From: Escherichia phage vB_EcoM_E9.1
Reading direction: 5' to 3' (one strand)
Sequence record: PP886230
DNA: 64,000 nucleotides
The translations under genes and the position numbers were made by a program. A model generated the notes under the pieces. The model saw only the letters and a program-made list of their open reading frames with translations. It did not search any database and was not told the origin of the DNA. Every line of letters begins with the position of its first letter. Position 1 is the first letter of the stretch. Of this stretch, positions 3,461 to 20,200 are shown piece by piece.

Positions 3461-3463
3461 AGT

Positions 3464-4702: not shown

Positions 4703-4705
4703 CAA

Positions 4706-5182: not shown

Positions 5183-5267
5183 AGTACTTGATAATAGTTT
5201 TTAGTACTGTATAATATTTTACATCGCAAGGGGGTAATGGTTCCCCCTGGTAACTAAGGATAATCAA

Positions 5268-5567
5268 ATGAAAGTTGCATTCATCGCCCTGGCTTTATCT
5301 GTTTCCTCTTTTGCTGTTAATGCGTCGTTAGATGTAAGTAGTGAAAAATTCATTCAGTGCACTGTAGCAATGACAGATGAAAGTACTGGCGAGATTGTAT
5401 TAAAGGATCTGGAGATTCAGCCGGAAGCATTTAAAAACGGCCCGTTCCATGAAGAAGACGAAAACGGTAGCACAACAATTTATTATGATGCCAGTACTAA
5501 ACGCGGGTCGGTCACTGTTATGGATACTGAGAAAGTAACTCATACTGGCGTTATTAATTGCCGTTGA
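5268..5567 (+). CDS. putative secreted protein with N-terminal signal peptide
   Basis: N-terminus MKVAFIALALSVSSFAVNA is hydrophobic with an AxA-type site. Confidence 0.65.
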   Translation: MKVAFIALALSVSSFAVNASLDVSSEKFIQCTVAMTDESTGEIVLKDLEIQPEAFKNGPFHEEDENGSTTIYYDASTKRGSVTVMDTEKVTHTGVINCR

Positions 5568-5588
5568 TAGATACTACGGGGTAACATC

Positions 5589-5819
5589 ATGACTAAGCGA
5601 ATTGTTTTACTTAACGAAAGCAGTACTACACAACTACTTAACGCCGTGCATTATGATATTGAAACGAGCGTTAATCTTATCAGTACTGTAGTACTGTTGG
5701 ACACTGGAAAGGTCGCCAATGATAAAGCGATTGCAGGTATACTAACGGATCTTGAGCCTGGTAGCAGTGCACCAATAACGTTAAATGGTAAAGTGTTTAA
5801 TATTTTACTCACTGATTAA
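5589..5819 (+). CDS. hypothetical protein
   Basis: ORF 76 aa immediately downstream, SD present. Confidence 0.6.
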   Translation: MTKRIVLLNESSTTQLLNAVHYDIETSVNLISTVVLLDTGKVANDKAIAGILTDLEPGSSAPITLNGKVFNILLTD

Positions 5820-5825
5820 GTACAT

Positions 5826-5850
5826 AGCCCACCTGGTGGGCTTTTTTGTT
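5826..5850 (+). terminator. rho-independent terminator
   Basis: Hairpin agcccacctggtgggct then TTTTTT. Confidence 0.7.
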
Positions 5851-6050
5851 TTTGTAGTATCGTAGTACTGAGATACTTTGAAAATAGTTTTAAAAAAGTA
5901 GTTGACATTACCGCAGAAAAGCGTAGAATGTATTACATCAAGACGGGGAGCACTAAGTAGACCGCCAGTAAGTCGAACGAAAAACTGGACACGTCGAGAA
6001 AACTTTGATACACTAATAAACGTAAACTAAACTTTAATTGAGGATTTATA

Positions 6051-6533
6051 ATGGCTAATGTAAAATCATTCATCAAAGCACTGGTAGCAAATGAAACTAA
6101 CGTCGCGGCTGAGATCCTGGCTGAACTGGATAACGATACCATGAAAGCGGTACGCAATAATTTTAACATCGCGTACAGTACTGCGAAAGAACTACAAGCA
6201 AATAAAGCGGCAGAAATTGAAGCGGCAAAGGCGGCCCGTGAAGCAGAACTACAAGCAACAATCGAAAGTATCCAGGCGGCGGTGTCTGGATTGGATCTGG
6301 AAGTGGTTGTGGAAATGGCACATAAAGCCCTGGCGGTTAAGTATGGTGAAGATAAGCCAGAATCTAAACCCAAAAAATGGATTCAGGAACGCGTAGCGGT
6401 AGTACTGGACAACGGGGAAGAATATCTGATTCCGGTGCGTGGTAACTGTATTGCGGTAGTACTGGACGCTATCAAAGAAAGCGGTATGACTCGCGAGGAA
6501 TGGATCGAAGCTCATCGCAAAGTTGAAGCATAA
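6051..6533 (+). CDS. hypothetical Ala/Lys-rich protein (160 aa)
   Basis: ORF with TTGACA promoter near 5903 and a long leader; SD gagga. Confidence 0.7.
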   Translation: MANVKSFIKALVANETNVAAEILAELDNDTMKAVRNNFNIAYSTAKELQANKAAEIEAAKAAREAELQATIESIQAAVSGLDLEVVVEMAHKALAVKYGEDKPESKPKKWIQERVAVVLDNGEEYLIPVRGNCIAVVLDAIKESGMTREEWIEAHRKVEA

Positions 6534-6554
6534 CAATTAAAGTACTGAATCACT

Positions 6555-6582
6555 AGCCCACTGTATAAGTGGGCTTTTTTGT
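6555..6582 (+). terminator. rho-independent terminator
   Basis: Hairpin agcccactgtataagtgggct then TTTTTT. Confidence 0.7.
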
Positions 6583-6817
6583 GTTTATCGTTTACCAGGC
6601 CACCAGCACCGCCTAGAAACGATTCTAACGCATTAAACGGATTATCTGATGCATTGCCCTAGCTGGTGGCGTTAAGGCTGTAAGAACGCGATTGAGAGCG
6701 TTTAAAGTATTTTGCAAAAAGTAATAAAAAGTACTTGAACGATTAAGAGATTAGCGTATAATGTTTTACATCGAGAGGGGGAAACGGTTCTCCTTCCAAA
6801 TCAAAGGAATCAAAACA

Positions 6818-7045
6818 ATGGCTATTATCATTACTCGCGTATCTGGTACTACTGGCAACGAACAAGTAGTTGCAGTCATTACGAACAAGGCAGGTGCGGA
6901 ATTGCAAAATGCAATGAATACCTGGGCCGTTAATGAGTTCGGTCAGTGGGCAAGTGTAGCATACATTGAAACCTATCAAGTGCCGTCGATTAGTTTAACT
7001 GATTTGGGCGTTGAGCGTATCCTTTGCCTTGATGAATTAAATTAA
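6818..7045 (+). CDS. hypothetical early protein
   Basis: ATG after promoter and hairpin; the track ORF from 6761 starts in the promoter. Confidence 0.65.
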   Translation: MAIIITRVSGTTGNEQVVAVITNKAGAELQNAMNTWAVNEFGQWASVAYIETYQVPSISLTDLGVERILCLDELN

Positions 7046-7130
7046 AAAAGTACTTGCAAAGTAAATCGAATAAAGTATAATACATTACATCAAGGGGAGA
7101 AATGGTTCTCCCCACTACAAGGAAACTAAA

Positions 7131-7343
7131 ATGGCTATCATTACTAAAATCAAAGTTAGTAAATCACTGGTTAAACTTGAAGAAGTGAAAGAAGGTTATA
7201 AAGTATCTTGGTGCGGTATGTATCGGACGTTCGCAGATATAGATGATGCGATCAATTATTACACTGACACGGTTAAAAACTTTGTTCGTGCTGATGTGGT
7301 TATGGCAGTGGCAACATATAAAGCATCAAAAGAAAGTAAGTAA
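7131..7343 (+). CDS. hypothetical early protein, paralogue of 10287-10466
   Basis: N-terminus MAIITKIKV resembles MAIIAKTEI. Confidence 0.65.
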   Translation: MAIITKIKVSKSLVKLEEVKEGYKVSWCGMYRTFADIDDAINYYTDTVKNFVRADVVMAVATYKASKESK

Positions 7344-7424
7344 AAATATTATCACAGTACTATTGACATAGTTTGATAGTACTGGCATAATAACTTTTAT
7401 CAAGACAACTAAGAGGAAATTAAA

Positions 7425-7769
7425 ATGGCTAACATCAATACTATAGCAGCACAAAATATCAACCTGTCTTCTGTTGAAGTTGTACATATTGCCGCTCGGC
7501 GTTGGTTCCAGGCTTCATATGGTAACACTTATTTCTCTTTAAGTGTAGACGTAGAAATTGATGGTAATTTTATTGAAGTAGTAAACGTGCCGTTCCAATA
7601 TGGATACGGGGATCATTTTGACACTGTAGCAATGGAAGAATTTAGCAAGGTTATTAATATGGAAGGTAAAGAGTTTTTACGCGGTTCTTATCTTTCCCGT
7701 TTTTGCCGTGATAATAATATCACTGTTTATAGTTCTGTTAGTGATGTTAAACGCAAAAAAGATCTTTAA
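7425..7769 (+). CDS. hypothetical early protein, paralogue of 14309-14632
   Basis: Shared GNTY, YGYG and C-terminal DVKRKKD. Confidence 0.7.
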   Translation: MANINTIAAQNINLSSVEVVHIAARRWFQASYGNTYFSLSVDVEIDGNFIEVVNVPFQYGYGDHFDTVAMEEFSKVINMEGKEFLRGSYLSRFCRDNNITVYSSVSDVKRKKDL

Positions 7770-7849
7770 TTAGCTTTACTTTATGCAGATACTTTGATAT
7801 AGTGTCTGCATAGGGGAAAGAAATTAAATTAACTTAAGAGGATAGTATA

Positions 7850-8119
7850 ATGAAAAATATCAGTACTTTAATCGATGCAGGTACTCATGTTCGTCGGTCT
7901 ATGGTTGCAACCAGTACTACAAAACAAGTAGCGAGCGGTTATCTTGTATTTGTGCACGATGGTAAACTCCTGGAACGTTCAATCAATTTTGATGTTAAAA
8001 ACAATTGCCGTTTTATTATCTTTAAGCGTGAGCAATATAAAATTGATTTACCAGCAAAGCCCATTAGTGGGGCGTACAACGTGCAATCATTGTTTGAACG
8101 TCAACCATACACCTATTAA
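7850..8119 (+). CDS. hypothetical protein
   Basis: ORF 89 aa, SD aagagga. Confidence 0.6.
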   Translation: MKNISTLIDAGTHVRRSMVATSTTKQVASGYLVFVHDGKLLERSINFDVKNNCRFIIFKREQYKIDLPAKPISGAYNVQSLFERQPYTY

Positions 8120-8170
8120 TCAAAACATCGTTAGCGGTCGATTCAGGCCGCTTATATTGGGGATTATACC

Positions 8171-8443
8171 ATGAACGTTAATCAAGTACTGAATGAGATC
8201 GAAAGCATCATTAAACCGATGAAGCGTACTGATGCTATGTTAACACCGGAAGAATGCCGCCTTTATGAGCGTTACAGCGTCGAACAAGTCCAGGCAATGG
8301 CTATGGCTACCCCAGCCGTTAAACCGCCTGAGAATGCGTTACAGGACGTTACAGGGGATTATATCATCAATCCAGTACTAGGGAAGATGGCTGCAATCAC
8401 CGAAGATCAACAAGACTACTTAAGCCAGTACTTAAAAGGTTAA
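8171..8443 (+). CDS. hypothetical protein
   Basis: ORF 90 aa. Confidence 0.6.
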   Translation: MNVNQVLNEIESIIKPMKRTDAMLTPEECRLYERYSVEQVQAMAMATPAVKPPENALQDVTGDYIINPVLGKMAAITEDQQDYLSQYLKG

Positions 8444-8448
8444 TTAAT

Positions 8449-8658
8449 ATGCTTACTGTACAGGATAAGATCGACATCTTAAAGGTTAATATGTATGTGA
8501 TTGATGCAGAACCTGGTAAAGTATTTGCATACGATGATAGTACTGTAAGCGATTTCTACTATAGCCAGGCCGTGGGGGATCTTTCTGTACAGTCGGTTAT
8601 TGAAAACGTAGTTAATGCAGCGTATGAGCATTTACTTTCAAATAGTACTTGCAATTAG
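8449..8658 (+). CDS. hypothetical protein
   Basis: ORF 69 aa, closely follows previous gene. Confidence 0.55.
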   Translation: MLTVQDKIDILKVNMYVIDAEPGKVFAYDDSTVSDFYYSQAVGDLSVQSVIENVVNAAYEHLLSNSTCN

Positions 8659-8728
8659 TTTTTAAACGCGTATAATGTTTTACATCGAGAGCGGGAATAG
8701 TTCCCGCCTCACTTTTAAGGAATATGAA

Positions 8729-8875
8729 ATGAAAGCATCAAAAAAGAGTACTAACAAGAAAGCACGTTCAACCTTAGATGGGGTATTCCCTTTACGTTTC
8801 GTTGATGAAGTGGTTTCCTACCCGCCTGGCCTTACTCCTGAGATGGTAGAAAGTTTGCGTAAATCTAAAAAATAG
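8729..8875 (+). CDS. hypothetical small basic protein (48 aa)
   Basis: In-frame ATG with SD taagga 8 nt upstream; the track ORF from 8675 begins in the promoter. Confidence 0.55.
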   Translation: MKASKKSTNKKARSTLDGVFPLRFVDEVVSYPPGLTPEMVESLRKSKK

Positions 8876-8956
8876 TACTTGCAATTAGTTTTTAGTACTG
8901 TATAATGTTTTACATGAAGGGGAGAAATGATTCTCCCCAATAACAGGAGAAACAAA

Positions 8957-9109
8957 ATGAAACAATACAACGCTCGGTTTGATGTTACTATCGGTAACGG
9001 CAAAGGTCAATTCTCTTTCAGTACTCGCCGCAGTTATACAGAAAACTTCCTGCGTAATTGTGCATTGACCGCCGCTCAAATTAAACATTATTTTCAGGCT
9101 AAAAAATGA
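8957..9109 (+). CDS. hypothetical small protein (50 aa)
   Basis: ATG after SD aggaga; promoter and hairpin upstream. Confidence 0.55.
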   Translation: MKQYNARFDVTIGNGKGQFSFSTRRSYTENFLRNCALTAAQIKHYFQAKK

Positions 9110-9195
9110 GATCATTAGCTTATTACAGTTCGGCCCTGGTCGGTGCATTGATCGCGGCGTTGTTAGTAACCTATCTATTCTTTATGGTGATTTAA
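9106..9195 (+). CDS. putative single-pass membrane peptide (29 aa)
   Basis: ATGA overlap with upstream stop; hydrophobic sequence. Confidence 0.35.
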   Translation: MRSLAYYSSALVGALIAALLVTYLFFMVI

Positions 9196-9333
9196 ATGAA
9201 TCCTAACGGTATAATTTACAGTACTCCTAAAACGAAAGCAGACAAGGTAAACGCTAAAAAAGCGAAAGTAAAGGAGTACATCAAACAAGGAATGACACGA
9301 AAGGCGGCGATTCTAAAAGCTAAAAATAAATGA
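9196..9333 (+). CDS. hypothetical small Lys-rich protein (45 aa)
   Basis: ATG directly after previous stop (TAAATG). Confidence 0.35.
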   Translation: MNPNGIIYSTPKTKADKVNAKKAKVKEYIKQGMTRKAAILKAKNK

Positions 9334-9336
9334 AAA

Positions 9337-9432
9337 AGTGGTTGACTTCGGTCAGCCATTTTGCTATTATATATTCATTGAGAGATAGCTCACTAGCCCA
9401 CAGGGTGCAGGAGTGTATCTATTGTATAATGT
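9337..9432 (+). repeat. promoter-containing repeat element (REP copy)
   Basis: ttgacttcggtcag..ctattatat then ..ctagcccacagggtgcaggagtgtatc. Confidence 0.6.
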
Positions 9433-9553
9433 TTGAGTACTGAAAACTATTTTAAAGTATTTGATAAAAAGTACTTGCAAACTATCTCAATAAGCGTATA
9501 ATGTTTTACATCGCAAGGGGAAACGGTTTCCCCTAGTAATAAGGAAACGAATC

Positions 9554-9895
9554 ATGACTATCTCAATTGCTCAATCTAACTTTGAAAATGAAATCATCGC
9601 CCAGGCACTGCGTTTAAATGATGGTCGGGCCGAAATCAATTACGGTTTCAATTCAGGCGGTTGTGAAAAATATCAGTACTTTGTAACGGCTGATGGCGGT
9701 GTACTGGGCATCAATACAGTTATTGTAAACATACAGAAAATTAATTTCAATGATCCAGACGATAGCCAGTTTTACATCACTGGCGTAGACGTGAACTATG
9801 AGGATGACTCACTAACTGATGACCACACTGGCGAGAAGTTAGAAAGTGCATACGGTGAAGATGATTATCAGTCCGGTCCAGAAGATTTCGAATAA
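9554..9895 (+). CDS. hypothetical acidic protein
   Basis: ORF 113 aa with promoter, hairpin and SD. Confidence 0.7.
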   Translation: MTISIAQSNFENEIIAQALRLNDGRAEINYGFNSGGCEKYQYFVTADGGVLGINTVIVNIQKINFNDPDDSQFYITGVDVNYEDDSLTDDHTGEKLESAYGEDDYQSGPEDFE

Positions 9896-9991
9896 TATTA
9901 AAAAATAGTTTGACAATAGATTATAGTACTGTATAATAGTTTACATCAAGGGGAGAAAAACTTCTCCCCACTAACAGAGAGAGAAAACAAA

Positions 9992-10204
9992 ATGGCTAAT
10001 ATCCGGTCGAAATTAAAAAATGCAAAACAAGTTTTATTTTCAGATCATGAATACTTTAATAAAGATATTACAGGAGTTACAAGTATCAAGGAAGTAAAAG
10101 AAAAAACCGGCGTTTTGTGTGATGTGCGATTAGTTGGGACATTTGGGAATAACGTGCTATATCGCTGTGGTGATTACAATTTTACACTGACTATCATTAA
10201 CTAA
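9992..10204 (+). CDS. hypothetical protein
   Basis: ORF 70 aa with promoter and hairpin. Confidence 0.65.
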   Translation: MANIRSKLKNAKQVLFSDHEYFNKDITGVTSIKEVKEKTGVLCDVRLVGTFGNNVLYRCGDYNFTLTIIN

Positions 10205-10286
10205 AAATATTATCACAGTACTATTGACATAGTTTGATAGTACTGACATAATAACTTTTATCAACTACACTACTAAGGAATTAAAA

Positions 10287-10466
10287 ATGGCTATCATCGC
10301 AAAAACTGAAATCATCGGCCTGGATTCTATCATCATGACGTTTGAAGATCAAAAAGGTATGTATGTGGTTTCCTATGGTGATTATGTTCGGGAGTATGAA
10401 ACGGTAGACGAAGCCTTTGAAAGTTACATTCGCCAGGTGAATAAAGCATACGACGACTACCGCTAA
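10287..10466 (+). CDS. hypothetical small protein (59 aa), paralogue of 7131-7343
   Basis: ORF below track cutoff; SD aagga; promoter 10215-10250. Confidence 0.55.
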   Translation: MAIIAKTEIIGLDSIIMTFEDQKGMYVVSYGDYVREYETVDEAFESYIRQVNKAYDDYR

Positions 10467-10565
10467 AATATATTACCAGTACTATTAAAGATATTGACAA
10501 CGTTTGATAGTACTGTATAATAAGTTTTATAAACAGTAGTTAACTTAACCTAAGAGAGAAATAAA

Positions 10566-10709
10566 ATGATCGCACTGGATTCATTCATCGACGCAGTACT
10601 GGCAAAAACTGGCGAGGATCTGACCGCAGAACAATACGCGATGATCGAACAATGTCAACAGGACGGTAAATCGGTGAAAGATACTGTTAAGATTATCCGC
10701 AAGATGTAA
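10566..10709 (+). CDS. hypothetical small protein (47 aa)
   Basis: ORF with SD agagaga and promoter upstream. Confidence 0.45.
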   Translation: MIALDSFIDAVLAKTGEDLTAEQYAMIEQCQQDGKSVKDTVKIIRKM

Positions 10710-10714
10710 GATTA

Positions 10715-10745
10715 TAGCCCACTGGTTAACGCTGGTGGGCTTTAA
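10715..10745 (+). terminator. terminator-like hairpin containing a Chi octamer
   Basis: agcccac..gtgggct stem; GCTGGTGG at 10732-10739; weak T-run. Confidence 0.45.
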
Positions 10746-10814
10746 TTCATTACCCTATACAATGCCAGTACTAAACCGTTTATCTCGTTAGAATGCGTTA
10801 CAGGACGTTTACCA

Positions 10815-11012
10815 ATGATTAGCATGAAATCAGTACAAAAACAAATAGAAACATTATCAAAAATTAAACGTAAACAGTACTCCTTAGAATATACAATCAA
10901 TGGTAACTATCATCTAATGAAAGAAAATAATTTTATAGTCATTGATGAATCATTGCAAATCATTAGTATAGTACTGAAAGCATTAATCAATGACAGAAAA
11001 AAATTAAAATAA
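10815..11012 (+). CDS. hypothetical protein
   Basis: ORF 65 aa. Confidence 0.5.
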   Translation: MISMKSVQKQIETLSKIKRKQYSLEYTINGNYHLMKENNFIVIDESLQIISIVLKALINDRKKLK

Positions 11013-11024
11013 ACTATTGACAAT

Positions 11025-11112
11025 ATCATCCAGCACTGGCATAATACTTACACCAAGACGAGAACGTCACTAACCCATAGGGTGCACAAATGTAACTGTA
11101 TAATATTGATCA
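11025..11112 (+). repeat. promoter-containing repeat element (REP copy, variant)
   Basis: TTGACA..cataat promoter then ..ctaacccatagggtgcacaaatgtaac. Confidence 0.5.
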
Positions 11113-11343
11113 AAAAATGATCTGATCAATACTTGATCAATTTGCGTAAAGTAGTATAATTCTATGCAGTTGGTTAGACGAAAGGTTATGATTAGTAGTG
11201 CAAGTGTATAAAAATTTTCATGGTGTATCGTTCCGCACATATGGGGATGAATATGTGGTATCATGTGGATTGGAAAAAGTAAGAACAAGTAATATTATTG
11301 TCGCATTACAGTACTATAGTATTTTTATAATGAGGTTAAAATA

Positions 11344-11601
11344 ATGGCTGTAGGATTCGCGAAAGATGGGGCCGAGCAAGACGAGATTAACGCAGTGATT
11401 CAGGCCGCCGTTAACCACGCTAGAAAGCAAATTAACGCACAAATAGAATCACTGATACATTGCCTCGACTGCGGCGATATAATCCCTGAGAAACGACGCC
11501 AGGCCGTTAAGGGATGTAAGTACTGCATAACTTGCCAGGAGGATCATGATAGTACTTTTAAACGTCCCCCGCGTAATTGTTGGCATAGATCTATGAGATA
11601 A
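11344..11601 (+). CDS. TraR/DksA-family C4 zinc-finger protein
   Basis: CLDCGDIIPEKRRQA..CKYCITC matches the zf-DksA/TraR pattern. Confidence 0.75.
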   Translation: MAVGFAKDGAEQDEINAVIQAAVNHARKQINAQIESLIHCLDCGDIIPEKRRQAVKGCKYCITCQEDHDSTFKRPPRNCWHRSMR

Positions 11602-11664
11602 AAAGTATTGACAGTACTGAAAGATAGTGTATAATGTTTTATATCTTAACTGAGGATAGTAATC

Positions 11665-12021
11665 ATGGGAATACAACATATCACGCGTACTACTGACAAT
11701 GGCGAGATCACTGGCTATCAAGTACAGGGCAAAGTAGCACAATTGCAGTACTGGTTTGTGAAACGTGGAATCATTGCACCGGATCTTGATTATGACCGTG
11801 TAGCGTTTATTGATTCTCTTTATGTTGATCCTGATAGTCGGGGCAATGGTGAAGGTAACGAATTAATGAATGCCTTTATTGATGCCGCCGATGATTCAGA
11901 TTGTATCATTTTAGAATGCGATACGGGAGAAGATAACGCCTTTAATCTTAAAGAATGGTACGAAGGTTTCGGATTCGAGGTACTGATCGATAGTGAATAT
12001 CCTATCATGATTTTATCATAG
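11665..12021 (+). CDS. putative GNAT-like acetyltransferase (small)
   Basis: VDPDSRGNGEGNELM resembles GNAT motif A and EWYEGFGFEV motif B; assignment tentative. Confidence 0.5.
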   Translation: MGIQHITRTTDNGEITGYQVQGKVAQLQYWFVKRGIIAPDLDYDRVAFIDSLYVDPDSRGNGEGNELMNAFIDAADDSDCIILECDTGEDNAFNLKEWYEGFGFEVLIDSEYPIMILS

Positions 12022-12099
12022 TACTTGCATTTAGTTTTCAGTACTGTTATAGTACTTGCATCAAGGGGAAACATCTTCCCCTACTAAGAGGAAATAAAA

Positions 12100-12288
12100 A
12101 TGGAAAACTTATCAAGTATTTTAGTACAAGATGATTTCGGTAATCCTGGAAGTGCTATCATTGTTCGGGGTAATAAAGCAACGTTTGTTATTGCTGGTGG
12201 ACCAGTACAGCGTAGCATTAAAAATAATGCTGTTACCATTAATAATGTACGCTATCGCTTAGATAAAGAATTGATTCATAAACTGTAA
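12100..12288 (+). CDS. hypothetical protein
   Basis: ORF 62 aa with promoter and hairpin. Confidence 0.6.
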   Translation: MENLSSILVQDDFGNPGSAIIVRGNKATFVIAGGPVQRSIKNNAVTINNVRYRLDKELIHKL

Positions 12289-12315
12289 TATTAATTTAAT
12301 AGAGGATAACAATAA

Positions 12316-12639
12316 ATGTACATTCATACTACTATCACAAAGGAAGTCCGTTGCCAGTTCGAAAGTATTCCGGGCGTATGTTTCATCACTGGTACGTTTT
12401 CCCCTGGTGATCGTGATAATCCAGTACTGTTACAATTACGCCATCCATCATGGGATAAAGCATTTGATCTACCGTTGAATGAATTCGCAACTACTGCTGA
12501 AAAGTACATTAAAAATATTCGCGAGAATGATCGACTATTCATTAATGCTTTTAGTGATTCCGCGTTAAGCGAGATCCACGGCGTATTGGTTGCAATCATG
12601 GAATCAATGCAGAAAACTAAATTCAAACAAGGTGAATAA
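12316..12639 (+). CDS. hypothetical protein
   Basis: ORF 107 aa; SD gagga. Confidence 0.65.
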   Translation: MYIHTTITKEVRCQFESIPGVCFITGTFSPGDRDNPVLLQLRHPSWDKAFDLPLNEFATTAEKYIKNIRENDRLFINAFSDSALSEIHGVLVAIMESMQKTKFKQGE

Positions 12640-12722
12640 AAACTATTGACAATGCAACCCAGTACTGTATAATAGTTTACATGAAGGGGAGAAATGATTC
12701 TCCCCACTGAGAGGAAAGAAAA

Positions 12723-12935
12723 ATGCAAGGTCAACTAATCGTTCGTAAATGGTCTGATACTAACGAAAAACCGTGGGATGTACAATACATCGGACCGGAT
12801 GGGGTATCACGTTATCAGCCTGGCGTAACGCATAGTACTGAGCAATATGCCGCCGCTCACCGCGAACGCCTGTTAGAATCCATGAAACAGGGATTCTGTG
12901 AAAAATTCATTCAAGATCATTGGCTGAAAGATTAA
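12723..12935 (+). CDS. hypothetical protein
   Basis: ORF 70 aa with promoter and hairpin. Confidence 0.65.
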   Translation: MQGQLIVRKWSDTNEKPWDVQYIGPDGVSRYQPGVTHSTEQYAAAHRERLLESMKQGFCEKFIQDHWLKD

Positions 12936-12952
12936 TAGAAGGAGTACAGCTT

Positions 12953-13045
12953 ATGCAAATGAATCCGATGATTATTGTTTTAGCTGTACTTATGATCATT
13001 CATGCAATTGTAGAAGTATTAACGCAATCAGGAGTAATAAAATGA
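12953..13045 (+). CDS. putative small membrane peptide (30 aa)
   Basis: SD aaggagt; hydrophobic; first of three overlapping micro-ORFs. Confidence 0.4.
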   Translation: MQMNPMIIVLAVLMIIHAIVEVLTQSGVIK

Positions 13046-13215
13046 TTCAAGTAGAATTATCAGTACTGAAAGATCTGTTTTATCGGTTAGGTACTACTGG
13101 AGAGTATCCTAAAAGTGATACCGCAAAACTTTTTGTATCACTCGACTTATGGCAACGCGAACAATTAGTAATGTCCTGGCGTAAAGGTAAAGCAGATCGC
13201 GAGGTGAAAGCATGA
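13042..13215 (+). CDS. hypothetical small protein (57 aa)
   Basis: ATGA overlap with upstream stop. Confidence 0.4.
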   Translation: MIQVELSVLKDLFYRLGTTGEYPKSDTAKLFVSLDLWQREQLVMSWRKGKADREVKA

Positions 13216-13361
13216 AAGAATTCTTATTCGAAGTAGTGTTTCAAGGTGTCGGTAGTAACCAACTGATTCGCTCAAGTGGTTACAATGTTAACCAGGCATG
13301 GAATAACATTAAACAAATGTACCCGAACGCTATCACCTATCGCAACCCGAAAGAAGTTTAA
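13212..13361 (+). CDS. hypothetical small protein (49 aa)
   Basis: ATGA overlap with upstream stop. Confidence 0.4.
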   Translation: MKEFLFEVVFQGVGSNQLIRSSGYNVNQAWNNIKQMYPNAITYRNPKEV

Positions 13362-13371
13362 AAATATTTGA

Positions 13372-13452
13372 AAAAGGGATTGACTCCGGTCAGTCCCTTT
13401 GCTATTATATACGCATAGAAACAATTCAGCCCACCGGGTGCATAAATGTATC
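13372..13452 (+). repeat. promoter-containing repeat element (REP copy)
   Basis: gggattgactccggtcagtccc..ctattatat then ..cagcccaccgggtgcataaatgtatc; Chi GCTGGTGG at 13451-13458. Confidence 0.6.
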
Positions 13453-13531
13453 TATTATATGCTGGTGGCTAGTACTGAAAACTATTTTTAAAAAGTACTT
13501 GCATTGTATTTAGAATCAAGTATAATGTTTT

Positions 13532-13612
13532 ACATCAGGACGGGGAACGAAACAAGTAACCCCGTTAAGTAGTCCAGGAGTAAGACATACGAAAACCTCC
13601 CCTGATAAAATA
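13532..13612 (+). ncRNA. candidate small RNA (copy 2)
   Basis: Near-identical to 3378-3460; substitutions look compatible with the proposed stems; sits between two promoters. Confidence 0.35.
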
Positions 13613-13674
13613 GTTTGACAATAGAAATTAAACGAGTATAATACTTACATCAACCACTGATAAGGAAACATAAA

Positions 13675-13950
13675 ATGCGGATTCTACTGACAGCTAACGA
13701 AATCGAACAAGTACTGACTACTAACCTGGAAGACTGGAAACGTGAAGCAGATATCCAGGCGGTTCAATGGTTAAATGATAAGTTAACGCCGGATGACTTA
13801 AGCAAGATTGTAGATCCTCAATTCTACGAAGATATCCACGACACCGCGTTAAGCGTCGAGGATGTACTAGATAAGCACTTTATTGATACTGATTTGCAGG
13901 TTTACGGTCGTAAAAACTTTATCACTATTCACGACATTTACAATAATTAA
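13675..13950 (+). CDS. hypothetical protein
   Basis: ORF 91 aa. Confidence 0.65.
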   Translation: MRILLTANEIEQVLTTNLEDWKREADIQAVQWLNDKLTPDDLSKIVDPQFYEDIHDTALSVEDVLDKHFIDTDLQVYGRKNFITIHDIYNN

Positions 13951-14037
13951 GTATTGACAAAGTATCTTAGTACTGTATAATAGTTTACATCAAGCGAGGG
14001 GAATGGTTCCCCTCCTAACTAAAAGAGAGAAATAAAA

Positions 14038-14220
14038 ATGGCTAAGTGCACTATCTGCAAGAAAGAAATAGTATTAGTTCCAAGTGCCCGTGAACGTGCC
14101 GCTCGGTTCGGTGGCAAAGCGTCAGACTATACAAAAATGTTTACTACCCATACAGCTTGCCAGGTAGCAAAACGTTCACAAGAAAGCGTAGAATTAATGC
14201 GTAAACTTTCCAAAAAATAA
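14038..14220 (+). CDS. hypothetical basic protein
   Basis: ORF 60 aa with promoter and hairpin. Confidence 0.6.
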   Translation: MAKCTICKKEIVLVPSARERAARFGGKASDYTKMFTTHTACQVAKRSQESVELMRKLSKK

Positions 14221-14308
14221 GTATTGACAAAGTATCTTAGTACTGTATAATAGTTTACATCAAGTGAGGGGAAACGGTTCCCCTCCTAACAAAGAGAGAG
14301 AAATAAAA

Positions 14309-14632
14309 ATGGCTATGATCCTTGCCCAGAAAGTAGAATTGAAAATTGTAACCTCCTTTGACATTAACGTTAATCGGTGGACTGATTCACACGGCAATAC
14401 TTACCACTCTTGCTACGTGTCTGCGTTAATTGGCGACCGCTGGGAAGACCTGGGACACGAAACCTTTACATACGGTTACGGTACACAAGGCGAATACACG
14501 GGCTTGGAGATCATTAAAGAAACCGTTATAGGTTTCAACCCGAAAGAAAAAGTTATTCACCGCATCGAGGAAGAGATCAACAAAGAAATAACAGTTCGCT
14601 ACCACGATGTAAAACGTAAGAAAGACATGTAA
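14309..14632 (+). CDS. hypothetical protein, paralogue of 7425-7769
   Basis: ATG after leader hairpin; shared DVKRKKD C-terminus. Confidence 0.7.
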   Translation: MAMILAQKVELKIVTSFDINVNRWTDSHGNTYHSCYVSALIGDRWEDLGHETFTYGYGTQGEYTGLEIIKETVIGFNPKEKVIHRIEEEINKEITVRYHDVKRKKDM

Positions 14633-14727
14633 TAGAATCCATTTAAAGTACTATTTGACATTGCCCAGATAGTACTTTATAATAGACTCTAACTTGTAGT
14701 ACTAACTTAACTAATAGGATGTATACC

Positions 14728-15123
14728 ATGATTACTAAATTCTACGCTACCCGTGAAGCTGCCCGTATTGTTGCACGCGAGGAAGGCGAAACATTTAAAG
14801 ACATGGGCAAAGATGCACCGAAAGGTCAACGCTGGGCCGTACAGTTCAAAGAGATCTCTGATATTGTGAATTCACCGGAGCCAGTACTAACAGCAGCAGA
14901 ACTAAAACGAGCGGATTTACTGGCGTCAATACTTGATGCACAAGATGAGTTTATCGCTGATTCTGATATCAAAGTACAGACAAACCACACCGCTTGGACT
15001 CACGCGGATCACCTGGCAAACCTTAAGCGTCCAAGTGAACTGATTCGCAACCAGAAAGAGATCCGACACGACCGTAAGGGTAATCGTGTAACAGTATACA
15101 GTAAACGCCGCCAGGTTATCTAA
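14728..15123 (+). CDS. hypothetical protein, paralogue of 2511-2777
   Basis: SD agga 8 nt upstream of ATG 14728; shared FKDMG and DRKGNRVTVY. Confidence 0.7.
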   Translation: MITKFYATREAARIVAREEGETFKDMGKDAPKGQRWAVQFKEISDIVNSPEPVLTAAELKRADLLASILDAQDEFIADSDIKVQTNHTAWTHADHLANLKRPSELIRNQKEIRHDRKGNRVTVYSKRRQVI

Positions 15124-15145
15124 TAACTTGCAGTACTAACAACAC

Positions 15146-15171
15146 GGCGGGATCAGTTCCCGCCTTTTTTA
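15146..15171 (+). terminator. rho-independent terminator
   Basis: Hairpin ggcgggatcagttcccgcc then TTTTTT. Confidence 0.7.
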
Positions 15172-15184
15172 TAGGACAAACAAA

Positions 15185-15439
15185 ATGATTAAGGTTCAAC
15201 TATATAAAGATAACATCTTACGGGTACACTATAAAGCACCTCAGAGAATCATCACAAAGGCCGTACAGCTTGCTAATGAGTTTATTAATGGTAACCTATT
15301 ACCAAGGAAGTTAAGCAACGGGAAACTGCGTGTAATCGATGTGGACACTAACAACAGAATAGTAATAGAGAACACAGGAAAAATAAACCTATATGAACAC
15401 CAACAATATAATAAGAAAATAAAACTAATATCACGTTGA
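15185..15439 (+). CDS. hypothetical protein
   Basis: ORF 84 aa. Confidence 0.55.
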   Translation: MIKVQLYKDNILRVHYKAPQRIITKAVQLANEFINGNLLPRKLSNGKLRVIDVDTNNRIVIENTGKINLYEHQQYNKKIKLISR

Positions 15440-15492
15440 CAGTACTCAAATGTTTTAGTACTATATGTACATACCAACACGGGGGAAACAAA

Positions 15493-15735
15493 ATGATTAC
15501 TTTAGAAAAACGTATCAAAGAAACTACATCGCTGGTGGAACTGTTAACAGTACTCAAATGTAAAACAACACCATTCAGCACGCCGGACTTTATTAATATG
15601 GTTGATGTTAATGGTCGCTATCGTATCACGGTCGAACAAGGAGCGGCGAAAGTATTCAGTACTAAAAACACGAAGGAAGTGATCCACGCCGTTAATGTTA
15701 AAAAAGTAGTTGCCATTGATAGTAAAGTACTGTAA
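15493..15735 (+). CDS. hypothetical protein
   Basis: ATG after gggggaaacaaa; the track ORF starts upstream at 15436. Confidence 0.55.
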   Translation: MITLEKRIKETTSLVELLTVLKCKTTPFSTPDFINMVDVNGRYRITVEQGAAKVFSTKNTKEVIHAVNVKKVVAIDSKVL

Positions 15736-15766
15736 GATAGTTACATTAACTCAAGGAGAACATGCA

Positions 15767-16351
15767 ATGCGTAATTATACTAAATTCATCCGTACACTGT
15801 CAGAAATGGAAACCAACAAAGAGATCCTTTCAGCTTGTCGGTTAGCTGGCCTGGAGATCATCGGTGCTGGTTCTTCCCGTATAGTATTCGCTTTAAATGA
15901 TCGGTTAGTGATTAAGGTCGCGAATTGTGATGCGGGTGTAGAACAAAATGAAACTGAATGTAAGGTATGGAATTTTTTAGACTATGACCGCCCTCAGTTG
16001 AAACAGTACTTTGCAAAGGTGCATATGCATTTATGCGATCCTGATAATATGTTTATCGTTATGGATCGGTTGAGTACTGCAAGCAAAGGCAGCGTAAAGC
16101 ACGTTAACGCGTGCAACGAATTAAAGTATAATATTAAACGTAATGCCATTGAACGCCAGCACCGCTTTGCTGATGCACTACAACACGTTGATGATACATT
16201 ATCAACACTAACGATAAGAGATATCAGAAAACAGAATATCGGCCAGGATCGTAATGGACTTATTAAAGTACTTGATTACGGTTTAACCCGCAATATCTGG
16301 AATCAGTACTATAAAAAGCGTGATGTAGAAGCAAGTAAGGTAACACGATAA
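15767..16351 (+). CDS. minimal protein-kinase-like protein (putative Ser/Thr kinase)
   Basis: Gly-rich loop IGAGSSRIVF, VIKV lysine, IRDIRKQNIG resembling HRDLKPENI, and DYG in place of DFG; SD aaggaga 6 nt upstream. Confidence 0.55.
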   Translation: MRNYTKFIRTLSEMETNKEILSACRLAGLEIIGAGSSRIVFALNDRLVIKVANCDAGVEQNETECKVWNFLDYDRPQLKQYFAKVHMHLCDPDNMFIVMDRLSTASKGSVKHVNACNELKYNIKRNAIERQHRFADALQHVDDTLSTLTIRDIRKQNIGQDRNGLIKVLDYGLTRNIWNQYYKKRDVEASKVTR

Positions 16352-16360
16352 AAAAAGATT

Positions 16361-16465
16361 AAAAAAGGGATTGACTCCGGTCAGTCCCTTTGCTATTATA
16401 TATTCATTGAGAGATAACTCACTGACCCATAGGGTGCGGAAGTGTATCTATTATATAAGTATTCA
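16361..16465 (+). repeat. promoter-containing repeat element (REP copy)
   Basis: gggattgactccggtcagtccc..ctattatat then ..cactgacccatagggtgcggaagtgtatc. Confidence 0.6.
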
Positions 16466-16573
16466 GTACTGAAAACTATTTTTAAAAAGTACTTGCATTG
16501 TACTTAGAATCAAGTATAATGTTTTATATCGAGAGGGGAAATGGTTCTCCCTCAAAGAACAAGGAATAAAATC

Positions 16574-16795
16574 ATGACTACAATGACTTGCATTCACGCT
16601 TCAAACCTGCTTAATGATGCGGCCTTTAATGTTGAAACAGAATATCAATGTTATCGGGATGAAAATAAAAAAGTTTTTGTAGTTGATAATAATGGTTTCC
16701 ATATTGAATTGCAATCCGGCTTCACTGGCGTTGATGGTAAATCAGTATGGGGCGTACAGGATGATAAAGGCACATATCATTTTAAACGTAATTAA
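16574..16795 (+). CDS. hypothetical protein
   Basis: ATG after SD aaggaat; the track ORF from 16541 starts in the leader hairpin. Confidence 0.65.
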   Translation: MTTMTCIHASNLLNDAAFNVETEYQCYRDENKKVFVVDNNGFHIELQSGFTGVDGKSVWGVQDDKGTYHFKRN

Positions 16796-16881
16796 GTATT
16801 GACAAAGTATATCAGTACTGTATAATAGTTTACATCAAGGGGAGAATAGTTCTCCCCACACCAATAAAAGGAAACATAATT

Positions 16882-17154
16882 ATGTCTAGCTACTCCGCTA
16901 CTATGATCATTAAAGATATGAACGGTAATCCTACTTCTGCTGGTGGATCATTTGGAAACATTAATTTAGATGGTCGGTTATCCATGCAATCAGCAATCGA
17001 TGCAGCGAAAGAAGTTTTTAAGAATGAATGTACTGTTAGTAAGCTGGATTATATGGGATTTGCTATCGAAAAAACTAATCGTTTTGTGGACTACAAAAAA
17101 CCACTGATGATTGATACTAACCTGAAAGCAAACGAAGTGGAGTACTTATTATGA
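16882..17154 (+). CDS. hypothetical protein
   Basis: ORF 90 aa with promoter and hairpin. Confidence 0.65.
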   Translation: MSSYSATMIIKDMNGNPTSAGGSFGNINLDGRLSMQSAIDAAKEVFKNECTVSKLDYMGFAIEKTNRFVDYKKPLMIDTNLKANEVEYLL

Positions 17155-17342
17155 CAGTTGAAGAAGTAAAAAAAGTACTGGCAGTACTACGCTATCATAA
17201 TCATTGTAAGGTGAAGAATGATCCTGATTATCTTGATTCATCCCTGGAAGAGGATACACTACAAGCAATAAGCCATATGCAAAAAATGCTTAAGCGTATG
17301 ACCGAAAAGAACAGGCCAGACTATATCGGAAATAAAATTTAA
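17151..17342 (+). CDS. hypothetical protein
   Basis: ORF 63 aa, ATGA overlap. Confidence 0.55.
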   Translation: MTVEEVKKVLAVLRYHNHCKVKNDPDYLDSSLEEDTLQAISHMQKMLKRMTEKNRPDYIGNKI

Positions 17343-17428
17343 AAAGTACTTGCATTGTAGTTAGATTAACGTATAATGTTTTACATAGAGCGGGGGAATA
17401 GTTCTCCCGCCAGTCCAGGAGATACACC

Positions 17429-17692
17429 ATGAACACTATCGAAATCACTATCAATGCACACGTATACGACAACGTAGTACTGCAAACTACTATGACCGCT
17501 AATGATACCAGTACTTTGCGGAATACTGTTATTAGTGCCGTATGTGCCGCTATCGGTGATGTCGCCCTGGAAAATGCAAAACACGTAAACGATGGTTTCA
17601 CTATGTGCAAACGTGATAACGCAAAACATATCATCGTGGAAGGTTACGGCGGTGTAGAATTTAATGTTTATATGAAAAAAGTACTTGCATAA
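17429..17692 (+). CDS. hypothetical protein
   Basis: ORF 87 aa with promoter, hairpin and SD. Confidence 0.65.
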   Translation: MNTIEITINAHVYDNVVLQTTMTANDTSTLRNTVISAVCAAIGDVALENAKHVNDGFTMCKRDNAKHIIVEGYGGVEFNVYMKKVLA

Positions 17693-17759
17693 TAACTAAA
17701 ACAAAGTATAATGTTTTGCATAGGGGGAGATATCCTCCCCCACTAAAAGGAGTACTAAA

Positions 17760-17984
17760 ATGGCTAACTTTGATGAACTGATGCGGGAAGTAGCTAACCT
17801 GGCAGAAGAGAAGAAATCATTCGATTCTATCTATAACACCGCTCATCGTGATTCAGTACTGGCATGTAACCAGGATCAAAAAGATGAACTAATCGCCACC
17901 TATCATGAAGCATGGAAGTACTACCGACAATGGGAGAAAGAAGAAAGCGAGTCTACCATCAACGGCATCAATAATCTAATCTAA
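17760..17984 (+). CDS. hypothetical protein
   Basis: ORF 74 aa with promoter and hairpin. Confidence 0.65.
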   Translation: MANFDELMREVANLAEEKKSFDSIYNTAHRDSVLACNQDQKDELIATYHEAWKYYRQWEKEESESTINGINNLI

Positions 17985-18060
17985 AAGTTTTATTTCAGTA
18001 CTATTGACATAGCTTGATAGTACTGATGTAATAACTTTACTAACTACAAGGGGAAACATA

Positions 18061-18318
18061 ATGGAACAGTTCACACAATATCGGGTAAATCCTCAAGCTA
18101 TGGCCTACGTAGAAGACCATAAAACGTTACCAGTACTGCAACCAGTTAAAGGCCATATCTATCGTGCAATGTCGTGGTGTGCGGCCCAGGATGGCTATAA
18201 AACCGTAGCCGTGGGTATGTACTGCGGTAATGGTGAATGGTTTGATCCAAATAATCCGGTAGCCATTGACAGTACTGAAAAAATGAAATGGGCCGACTAC
18301 ATCGAAGATATTTCATAA
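18061..18318 (+). CDS. hypothetical protein
   Basis: ORF 85 aa. Confidence 0.65.
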   Translation: MEQFTQYRVNPQAMAYVEDHKTLPVLQPVKGHIYRAMSWCAAQDGYKTVAVGMYCGNGEWFDPNNPVAIDSTEKMKWADYIEDIS

Positions 18319-18408
18319 AAACTATTTGACAGTACTAACCAGTAATGTATAATGTTTTACATAGAGCGGGGGAATAGTTCTCCCGCCAATAGTTTGGAGT
18401 TAAACATT

Positions 18409-18609
18409 ATGTCTATCGCTATCTCCCTGGTTGAAGTACTGAAAGAAGCTAAAGCCAACCAGATCGACGTAAAGATCCAGGAACTACAAAACGGCTTAAT
18501 CGGCTGTACTTGTACCGCTGGTGGAGCGGCAGACTATCGAGAACACGAATCACTCGAATCACTGGTTCGGTATCTTTCCATGATCGTTGATGATTGGAGA
18601 ATCATCTAA
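18409..18609 (+). CDS. hypothetical protein
   Basis: ATG after the hairpin; the track ORF from 18352 starts in the promoter. Confidence 0.6.
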   Translation: MSIAISLVEVLKEAKANQIDVKIQELQNGLIGCTCTAGGAADYREHESLESLVRYLSMIVDDWRII

Positions 18610-18621
18610 CAAAAAAGAATA

Positions 18622-18705
18622 AAAAAGGGATTGACTCCGGTCAGTCCCTTTGCTATTATATACGCATAGACAAAAACTAGCCCACAGGGTGCATAGGTGT
18701 ATCCA
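18622..18705 (+). repeat. promoter-containing repeat element (REP copy)
   Basis: gggattgactccggtcagtccc..ctattatat then ..ctagcccacagggtgcataggtgtatc; Chi at 18739-18746 just downstream. Confidence 0.6.
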
Positions 18706-18853
18706 AAATATATAGTTAATAACGGTGAGTAACTATCTGCTGGTGGAACTAAAACTATTAATAAAAAAGTATTGACAAAGTATATCAGTACTGCGATAAT
18801 GTATCTCGTAGGGCGGCAATGGTGCGACGGCCCACAAAGTTAGGAGATTCAAA

Positions 18854-19186
18854 ATGACTACTTCAATCGCTATCGTTAAAGCTTTCATCCGTACTAATGT
18901 TTCCTCTGTATTCATCGACGGCCTCGACCGTAACGTAGAATACTCAATCATTATCGCACAAACGGCAAACGGTTCTCGGTACATCCTGAATGATAGTGAA
19001 GCAAATCACTACTACTTCACTAAAGCCACTGGCTTTAAACGCATCGATGCTGATGTAGTATACGCTAAGATGAATAAGCTGGTAGATAAGATTAACGCTA
19101 AAGGTACTATAGATTTACAGTACTGGACCGAAACCGATCCAGAGTATGGATCTCACCGCTACCTGAATCCAGGTATCAAAATGTAA
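18854..19186 (+). CDS. hypothetical protein
   Basis: ORF 110 aa; TTGACA promoter near 18772 with a long structured leader. Confidence 0.7.
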   Translation: MTTSIAIVKAFIRTNVSSVFIDGLDRNVEYSIIIAQTANGSRYILNDSEANHYYFTKATGFKRIDADVVYAKMNKLVDKINAKGTIDLQYWTETDPEYGSHRYLNPGIKM

Positions 19187-19275
19187 AAAGTACTTGCATA
19201 GTACTTAGATTCATGTATAATGTTTTACATAGAGAGGGGGAAATGGTTCTCCCTCCTAAATTAAGGAGTTTTATC

Positions 19276-19677
19276 ATGACCTTCTCAATCAATTCCTTCG
19301 CTGACGTTTTAGTACTGGCCCGGACTTTTGGTAAAGATGCACTGGAGTACGCTGTAAGTAATGGCACTATCCAACCGGAACAGTGCCGCATCATTGGAAA
19401 CTGCAAACGTTGGGCGGTATCCAATACTATTGCACTGGAAAACTTCCACGATGGCAACAATGAATATTCTGTTGATGTAGTATTCGAAGCCGTTGATCTC
19501 GGCGGTATCTATAATACTAACCTGAATGATGTGCGTATCGTTCGCACGGGGTTCGGTGCTTATGATGTATCTATCCGTGAAGCTATGAACACCGGATACA
19601 TTAGCAAGGACTTACTTGCTCACATCATGCAGCTGTGTACGGAACGTAACGAAGCACGTACTATCTTAGGGCTGTAA
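19276..19677 (+). CDS. hypothetical protein
   Basis: ATG after SD taaggagt; the track ORF from 19213 starts in the promoter. Confidence 0.7.
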   Translation: MTFSINSFADVLVLARTFGKDALEYAVSNGTIQPEQCRIIGNCKRWAVSNTIALENFHDGNNEYSVDVVFEAVDLGGIYNTNLNDVRIVRTGFGAYDVSIREAMNTGYISKDLLAHIMQLCTERNEARTILGL

Positions 19678-19745
19678 GCAATACACATCACCAAACATCA
19701 TAGGCCGCTCTCTAGCGGCCTTAACTATATCAGGAGTACATACAT

Positions 19746-19955
19746 ATGTTCTATACAGTATACAGCGTTCTAGGCACTATTGCAGGCGTACATGATAACG
19801 TCAATGATGCTATGCGTACAGTACTGCAACAGGTTCCACTAAAGCCTAAGACCATTAAGCAGATGACAGCACGACTAACCAGGGCGACGGCTGGCGTGGA
19901 AGTATGGCAGGACTATGGGGATACACAGATAATCGTAAGCGTAACGAAGGATTAA
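19746..19955 (+). CDS. hypothetical protein
   Basis: ORF 69 aa, SD caggagt. Confidence 0.6.
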   Translation: MFYTVYSVLGTIAGVHDNVNDAMRTVLQQVPLKPKTIKQMTARLTRATAGVEVWQDYGDTQIIVSVTKD

Positions 19956-19959
19956 TGCG

Positions 19960-20200
19960 TAAAGGGATTTAGTACTGATTCAGAAAAAAGTCAAGGCGTT
20001 TTTAAAATTATGCGTTAAAAAAATGCATAGGTAATCCCTTGACTTTTTTGAAATAAAAGGGATTGGACTATGGCAAAATGCGTAGGGGGCTAAAGGGCGG
20101 GTAACCTTAGCGACTTCGATAAAGGGGTATTACGAATAAAATGTTATTGATTTTTTATACGAATCGTATATTATAGGATTGATATTATTTTTAATGGAGT
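19960..20200. promoter_or_regulatory. non-coding junction with inverted repeats (aaaaagtcaagg / ccttgactttttt; aaagggatt x3) at the transition to AT-rich DNA
   Basis: Inverted repeats read directly; base composition changes here. Confidence 0.45.

Follow-up and report, generated by a model that had tools for sequence, protein, structure and literature searches.

The 64,000-nt stretch of the genome of Escherichia phage vB_EcoM_E9.1 studied here (record PP886230), called the window below, carries a gene for a small kinase-like protein at 15767..16351. The gene, its motifs and the flanking elements described below are on the + strand. Both the list of open reading frames (ORFs) and the raw sequence give a product of 194 aa (22.5 kDa), with the TAA stop codon at 16349-16351. 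The coding sequence (CDS) is preceded by the Shine-Dalgarno (SD) sequence AAGGAGA (15753..15759), read from the sequence 7 nt before the ATG. An alternative TTG start at 15710 gives a longer reading that overlaps the preceding gene and is used in no related record. The same 585-bp CDS is annotated for orthologues in about 40 related phage records, and two cultured phages, G17 and CRJP21, encode an identical protein. It is referred to below as the minimal kinase: a predicted kinase fold reduced to little beyond its catalytic core.

The original prediction had read four kinase motifs in the 194-aa ORF, namely a glycine-rich loop, a VIKV lysine, a catalytic-loop-like segment and a DYG in place of DFG, and all four occur in this order and at their positions in the sequence. 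Their conservation was counted in 271 domains from 241 family proteins aligned to the family hidden Markov model. The glycine-rich phosphate-binding loop G33-A-G35-S36-S37-R38 (IGAGSSRIVF; 15863..15880) retains G35 in 268/271, S36 in 252 and R38 in 270/271 domains. The third Gly of the GxGxxG motif of eukaryotic-type protein kinases is replaced by the near-invariant Arg38, and the loop reads G-x-G-S-S-R. K50, the lysine of the β3 'VAIK' motif (here VIKV; 15914..15916), is present in 271/271 domains and is aligned to the β3 Lys of MKK7. The start of helix αC carries Q60-N61-x-x-E64 (15944..15958). E64 is the αC Glu, which had gone unmentioned in the original prediction; it lies within a G-x-x-Q-N-x-x-E motif and is found in 271/271 domains, together with the family-specific pair Q60 (271/271) and N61 (267/271).

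The catalytic loop R151-D152-I-R-K-Q-N157-I-G159 (IRDIRKQNIG; 16217..16243) is aligned with the HRDxKxxN of MKK4, MKK7 and PknB-type kinases. D152 is kept in 268/271 domains, the other three having Glu, and G159 also in 268/271. Position 151 is Gly in 167/271, which makes most members 'non-RD' (G-D). Position 157, the metal-binding Asn, is N in the minimal kinase and its close relatives and H, N, S, T or Q across the family. In the DFG-equivalent metal-binding motif D170-Y171-G172 (16274..16282), D170 is conserved in 268/271, Y171 in 201/271 (Phe in 32) and G172 in 266/271 domains.

In a single-sequence search, the Pfam model Pkinase (PF00069) was matched over profile positions 26-152 of 263 with an E-value of 0.0024 and 17.8 bits, below the gathering cut-off of 31.7. 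The best relative in this respect, P0018, reached 26.2 bits (E 6e-6, positions 3-152), also below the cut-off, and another family member matched AceK_kinase at E 1e-6. PHROG 4301 was matched as well, a group of 'unknown function' that is not annotated as a kinase PHROG. A phmmer search of the Protein Data Bank (PDB) with the single sequence returned 82 marginal matches, all of them to protein kinases, with the catalytic loop and DFG as the aligned parts. With family profiles built from 14 and 52 members, 252 and 613 different PDB sequences were matched at E≤1, virtually all of them protein kinases; the register was the same throughout, and MKK4 gave the best match (7e-5). When aligned to MKK7, family residues 29-183 cover kinase residues 21-172 of 323, from the Gly-loop to just past DFG.

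An AlphaFold2 model based on a 14-sequence alignment was poor (predicted local distance difference test, pLDDT, 52; below 50 in the C-terminal half) and was discarded. With a 93-sequence alignment, the model was confident throughout (pLDDT 94.0, predicted template modelling score 0.90). It starts with two N-terminal helices, followed by β1 (30-34), β2 (38-42), β3 (47-52), helix αC (55-73), β5 (96-100), one helix at 109-120 and another at 130-145, the catalytic loop between two short strands, and a last helix at 175-182. Foldseek against the PDB gave 27 matches at E≤1e-3, comprising kinases, aminoglycoside phosphotransferases (APH), Rio2 and, as a related fold, SAICAR synthase. Among viral models, it matched T7-type phage kinases at E~1e-6 with TMq values of 0.53-0.58. 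The bilobal fold of the protein-kinase-like superfamily is present, with a five-stranded N-lobe including αC, a hinge, αE, the catalytic loop and DFG, and so are its β3 Lys, αC Glu, catalytic Asp and DFG Asp. Structure prediction, one of the checks proposed with the original prediction, returned a confident kinase fold and not a non-kinase fold. The minimal kinase almost certainly has a kinase-like fold.

It could be argued that the motifs are a chance resemblance, or that the ORF is not a real gene, given the weakness of the single-sequence Pkinase match. This is extremely improbable. The gene has a good ribosome-binding site, its 585-bp CDS is kept across dozens of phages, it has 2,072 relatives, and the kinase-fold model is of high confidence. 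Judged from the sequence comparisons, the resemblance to kinases is not by chance.

What the protein lacks is as marked as what it keeps. Pkinase positions 153-263 have no counterpart: there is no activation segment, P+1 loop, APE motif or αF-αI. Only 22 residues follow D-Y-G, eight of them helical, and the protein ends at residue 194 without an extra domain. The last helix (residues 175-182; 16289..16312) stands, in the model, in place of all post-DFG parts of ordinary kinases and ends in the near-invariant Y182 (235/250). The original prediction held that most of the substrate-binding lobe is missing; this is borne out, as matches to kinases end at the DFG region and one 8-residue helix follows DYG. 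The αF-αI scaffold is thought to organise all protein kinases.

Conservation is unevenly spread along the domain. It amounts to 2.6 bits per position in β1-β3, 2.3 in the hinge and 2.4 from β7 to DYG, and to about 1.0 in residues 105-146 (16079..16204). This segment, a helical C-lobe remnant with αD-like and αE-like helices, is the most variable part, differs in length from 22 to 47 residues across the family and is a candidate specificity surface. Near-invariant K50, E64, D152 and D170 next to a variable segment 105-146 suggest a constant chemistry with a variable specificity surface, which is not the pattern of a pseudokinase. The minimal kinase is thus very probably a catalytically active phosphotransferase. 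The gene would encode an ATP-dependent enzyme with a stripped-down protein-kinase fold, which would retain the full N-lobe (Gly-rich loop, β3 Lys and αC Glu), the hinge, the αE-like helix, the catalytic Asp and Asn, and D-Y-G. As there is no activation loop and the catalytic loop is non-RD or weakly RD, the enzyme should be constitutively active once made. The invariant Arg38 may replace the missing catalytic-loop Lys in holding the γ-phosphate.

A less conventional use of the ATP-binding fold has also to be considered, either as a pseudokinase-like regulator or decoy or for a different reaction, for instance AMPylation. Known examples of kinase folds carry out other reactions. In addition, ordinary kinases have their catalytic and regulatory spines organised by the αF-αI scaffold, which is lost here, and the metal-binding Asn is poorly conserved. 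Pseudokinases, however, typically lose the Lys, the catalytic Asp or the DFG Asp, whereas here all of these and the αC Glu are kept in at least 268/271 domains despite very deep divergence. This reading is considered very unlikely.

The window covers the left end of an Asteriusvirus (G17/PBECO4-like) jumbo coliphage genome. The region is 95-97% identical (megablast) in the ~350-kb Asteriusvirus jumbo coliphages G17, PBECO4, 121Q, Sharanji and phAPEC6. By tblastn, the minimal kinase is found in 59 phage records, all of Rak2-like jumbo phages. Protein identity is 100% in G17 and CRJP21, 91-99% in other Asteriusvirus phages, 36-40% in Salmonella SE_PL, Klebsiella fENko-Kae01, Escherichia EJP2, Erwinia Kaldavass, Xanthomonas XbC2 and Klebsiella RaK2/K64-1, and about 27% in Yersinia fHe-Yen9-04 and Pectobacterium CBB. 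The protein is 'hypothetical' in most records and a (putative) protein kinase in six (fEgEco12, ph0011, SE_PL, fENko-Kae01, Turkey3 and Turkey5). The Sharanji orthologue, gp063 (WNN14351.1), has been described as 'another protein kinase, which function is unknown' (PMC11895373). Since the kinase label already stands in several records and one paper, what is new is the view of the family as a whole and how extreme the truncation is, and not the annotation as such.

A word-indexed search had given only 13 relatives, but an exhaustive profile search over 1.84 billion cluster representatives retrieved 2,072 family members at E≤1e-3, of which 244 also reached E≤1e-10; most are stand-alone proteins, 180-300 aa long. 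The minimal kinase is thus one of thousands of phage proteins in its family. No NCBIfam family matched. A Pfam scan of 93 members (E≤1) matched 86 families, of which the 25 most frequent were listed; the matches listed include Pkinase, PK_Tyr_Ser-Thr, AceK_kinase, YrbL and ABC1, all sub-threshold. On these comparisons, the minimal kinases are a family without a Pfam or NCBIfam model. YrbL (PF10707), a kinase-like enterobacterial protein of ~200 aa, is similar in size and was matched sub-threshold by 5 of the 93 members. Its best E-value of 0.017 does not indicate membership and, being uncharacterised, YrbL adds no function. The same search patterns confirmed 155 loci in IMG/VR as against a single one in 185,579 bacterial and archaeal species genomes (one genome each), and that single locus lies on an 86-kb contig of a metagenome-assembled genome. 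The family thus appears essentially phage-restricted.

In uncultured phages, the genes are sometimes multiplied. Head-to-tail arrays of 2-7 adjacent paralogues were found in 21 fetched loci; the largest comprise seven copies (L136) and four copies each (L151 and L134), with 18 further loci. Single polypeptides with 3-4 complete copies are also predicted, as gene-called (P0021, P0023, P0027, P0030 and P0032). P0130, a PhageMin_Tail protein of the tape-measure type with 3,248 aa, contains two minimal kinase domains at 662-848 and 849-1056. The catalytic set is kept in every copy of the tandem and fusion proteins. Being of the tape-measure type, P0130 would be ejected into the host, and in some phages the enzyme may be delivered with the phage DNA instead of being made after entry. 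Arrays and fusions to virion proteins are typical of genes engaged in host-virus conflict.

A related case is the kinase domain of phage and plasmid polyvalent proteins described by Iyer, Burroughs, Anand, de Souza and Aravind in 2017. This domain of the Ser/Thr/Tyr-kinase superfamily, known from phages, has lost its whole C-terminal subdomain but kept the residues for ATP binding and phosphotransfer; it also exists as a stand-alone protein, and host proteins are its predicted targets (PMC5512222). The minimal kinase likewise combines a lost C-terminal subdomain with an intact active site, and some minimal kinases lie in huge multidomain or tape-measure proteins or next to ART-PolyVal genes. 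The signatures differ, nonetheless. The polyvalent family is marked by a Glu that precedes strand 2, by a Gln in the final strand of the N-lobe and by an insert that separates a conserved His from the catalytic Asp (PMC5512222), while minimal kinases have G-x-G-S-S-R and G-x-x-Q-N-x-x-E and no conserved His before D152; the Glu and Gln features were judged by description. The polyvalent kinases were reported mainly from (pro)phages of Verrucomicrobia-Chlamydia and Bacteroidetes (PMC5512222). The corresponding Pfam model 'Kinase-PolyVal', whose presence in the Pfam copy used is unconfirmed, did not appear among the matches of the window protein (E≤10) or of 10 distant relatives (E≤0.01), nor among the 25 families matched most often, out of 86, by the 93 members.

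As for the substrate, the original prediction proposed that the enzyme could phosphorylate host transcription or translation factors or defence proteins. This is partly supported: the kinase fold stands, and a host-protein substrate is the best guess only. By analogy with the T7 kinase (T7K, gp0.7), the enzyme would phosphorylate Ser/Thr, and possibly Tyr, on host proteins, for take-over or counter-defence, with the variable helical segment 105-146 giving target specificity. A host protein is regarded as the most likely substrate because the nearest sequence relatives are protein kinases and not small-molecule kinases, and because of the diversifying arrays, the fusions to ejected proteins and the T7K precedent. 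The chance that the substrate is a protein is evenly balanced.

T7K disarms host defences by phosphorylation and serves as a broad counter-defence weapon (PMC13645617). Both enzymes have a kinase-like fold and would be made early from host promoters, and T7-type kinases are among the better structural matches. The two are not alike in sequence: T7K has DPV in place of DFG and a C-terminal shut-off/DNA-binding domain (PMC13645617), whereas the minimal kinase has D-Y-G, no such domain and about half the size, and falls into another PHROG (4301). A sequence relationship to T7K was rejected, as hhalign of the 93-sequence profile against T7 gp0.7 gave a probability of 0.2%. A tblastn search of the window with T7 gp0.7 found nothing. 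Asteriusvirus phages carry a separate, distant T7K homologue (Sharanji WNN14432.1; also G17) (PMC11895373, PMC13645617), so that each phage would have two unrelated kinase-fold genes. The early proteins of kinase-carrying phages were reported to be depleted in acceptor residues (PMC13645617). In the window, ORFs of the early block (1-20,000) contain less Tyr than those at 21,500-64,000 (4.4% vs 6.8%, p=3e-7), slightly less Ser and slightly more Thr. The summed S+T+Y content is 17.1% vs 19.7% (p=0.005), an ambiguous signal that is driven by Tyr, opposed by Thr and derived from crude ORF calls.

Several observations weigh against an active kinase of host proteins. The peptide-binding parts of kinases (activation segment, P+1 loop and αF-αG) are absent, the catalytic-loop Lys (D+2) typical of Ser/Thr kinases is unconserved, and Asn157 is replaced by H, S, T or Q in most relatives. 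The single-sequence Pkinase score stays under the gathering cut-off, and every family member is either hypothetical or a putative kinase by annotation alone. One clade adjoins RNA-repair genes, and one protein, P0121 (2,130 aa), fuses a minimal kinase to GNAT, 2H-phosphoesterase and CCA-adding/PolyA-polymerase domains. Finally, the invariant R38, Q60 and N61 near the γ-phosphate could mean that there is one conserved, non-protein substrate.

One rival reading is a small-molecule kinase of the aminoglycoside- or choline-kinase type, acting on a metabolite, a nucleotide or an immune second messenger. Among the Pfam matches listed for the 93 members at E≤1, there is no APH, choline-kinase or RIO1 model. 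The conserved His of the APH/Brenner motif (H-x-D-x4-N) is absent, and the minimal kinase is missing the helical C-terminal substrate subdomain of APH enzymes. Aminoglycoside 2''-phosphotransferases and Rio/Bud32 are proteins of 235-300 aa with substantial C-lobes, and only 115-137 of the 194 residues superpose on them. Arrays of diverged paralogues are also hard to square with a single small substrate. A small-molecule substrate is therefore judged unlikely.

The RNA-repair neighbourhood raises a further alternative, in which the enzyme would phosphorylate RNA (tRNA), as a functional counterpart of archaeal ArkI that takes part when phage and host compete over the cleavage and repair of tRNA. 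In the P0188 clade (L007-L010), the minimal kinase is encoded immediately upstream of a gene of the Pnkp-like AAA_33/tRNA_lig_CPD type, followed by genes for a NUDIX protein, T4 RNA ligase 1, a protein with an HD domain, and DNA ligase. At other loci, the minimal kinase is found near KTI12 and RtcB. A census of 160 viral loci was reduced to 76 non-redundant lineages at 60% identity, with 279 immediate neighbours compared with Pfam. Seed searches found Pnkp-like genes in 9 of the 76 lineages, Rnl1 in 7, KTI12-like genes in 6 and RtcB in 2. The Pfam scan of the neighbours gave 5'-3' exonuclease (13), RecA (9), DnaB (7), AAA_33 (7), dUTPase (6), tail sheath (6, with six further similar ORFs excluded), ART-PolyVal (4) and tRNA_lig_CPD (4). 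At least three mutually exclusive syntenic contexts can be distinguished: RNA repair, 5'-3' exonuclease/RecA/DnaB/dUTPase, and a position upstream of tail sheath. There is no universal neighbour partner among the 76 lineages.

Since the RNA-repair association is confined to one clade and a universal partner is missing, the RNA-kinase reading is kept as a minority rival only. ArkI/Ark1, an archaeal tRNA 2'-kinase, is characterised by HGQ and DFE motifs, subdomains IX and XI, a basic YKR motif and a basic tRNA-binding surface (PMC9095486). The minimal kinase family, in contrast, has no HGQ, DFE, YKR or basic signature and keeps the catalytic Asp in [G/R]-D and D-Y-G instead. Its median isoelectric point is 6.45, over half of the members are acidic, and K/R follows Y182 in only 32-39%. 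In the window, no RNA-repair gene adjoins the kinase gene. An RNA-kinase role is possible for some clades, nothing supports it for the window gene, and overall it appears distinctly improbable.

A bolder reading was also considered. Here, a 'half-kinase' of ~170 residues would form a very large phage-only family working without the αF-αI scaffold, expanded by phages into arrays and ejected proteins as a diversifying counter-defence arsenal, in which each paralogue would inactivate a different host target, maybe even tRNA or nucleotide immune signals. This picture is speculative and doubtful.

The gene lies in a region with the hallmarks of early expression. In vB_Ec-M-J, a direct terminal repeat (DTR) is annotated at 1-21,525 with the kinase gene inside it at 16,690-17,274, and in Klebsiella fENko-Kae01 the DTR at 1-19,736 contains the 39%-identical homologue at 16,233-16,823. 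A gene in the DTR is present in two copies per genome, and it is found twice in many records. Between 366 and 19,193, the window contains 27 exact σ70-type promoters, all on the + strand, 12 of the form TTGACA-N16-18-TATAAT and 15 of the form CTTGCA-N17-19-TATAAT. Only two occur in the remaining 44 kb (19,250-64,000), with none on the − strand. The boundary of the promoter-dense part (~19.2 kb) agrees with the ~20-21.5-kb DTR annotated in relatives. The promoters are part of reiterated modules of ~45-77 nt, in which the -10 element is followed by a conserved 5' hairpin (GGGGAA..TTCTCCC), an SD sequence and the ATG.

Given the DTR position and the consensus host σ70 promoters, the host RNA polymerase should transcribe the kinase gene in the first minutes of infection. 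The terminal repeat and the promoters also back the placement of the gene in an early region by the original prediction. A literature search found no transcriptome for the genus Asteriusvirus. Early expression is considered likely. Taken as a whole, the statement that the gene encodes an active, early, minimal kinase phosphorylating host proteins has about an even chance of being right.

Jumbo coliphages would thus carry, in the first DNA entering the cell, a second kinase-fold enzyme that is unrelated to the first and much smaller. Should the enzyme be active, it would rank among the smallest self-sufficient kinase catalytic cores and would bear on how the kinase fold works without the C-lobe scaffold. 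The protein is also tractable, as it is small, identical in cultured phages and offers clear sites for point mutants (K50, D152 and D170).

The kinase gene has no promoter module of its own. The nearest upstream promoter-like site, TTGACA-N17-TACTAT (15436..15464; 10/12 matches), is a candidate promoter for an 81-aa ORF (15490..15735) and for the kinase gene, which follows after a 31-nt gap; the two are probably co-transcribed. The 81-aa ORF has no Pfam or NCBIfam family. Homologues lie directly upstream of the kinase gene in fENko-Kae01 and EJP2 and not in RaK2, and the one in fENko-Kae01 (ENKO_042) carries the record note 'identified with LC-MS/MS analysis'. The ORF may be a partner of the kinase, but it is replaced in RaK2, and the arrangement looks more like general synteny than a dedicated pair.

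Downstream, a perfect 12-bp hairpin with A- and T-tract flanks begins 13 nt after the stop codon (16364..16391), and the transcription unit probably ends there. The hairpin overlaps a promoter-like TTGACT-N17-TATTAT sequence and is part of an intergenic module of ~100 nt that occurs three times (13360-13460, 16351-16451 and 18611-18711), each time right after a stop codon. The module consists of an A-tract, the 12-bp hairpin AAAGGGATTGAC-TCCG-GTCAGTCCCTTT over TTGACT-N17-TATTAT, and a conserved GCCCACnGGGTGC...GTGTATCTATTATAT. An Rfam scan of the whole window, including the module, gave no matches. The module may serve as a terminator/promoter cassette or encode a small RNA. Beyond the terminal repeat, too, nearly all genes point the same way: of the 102 crudely called ORFs of at least 50 aa at 21,500-64,000, 99 lie on the + strand, and the median length is 120 aa.

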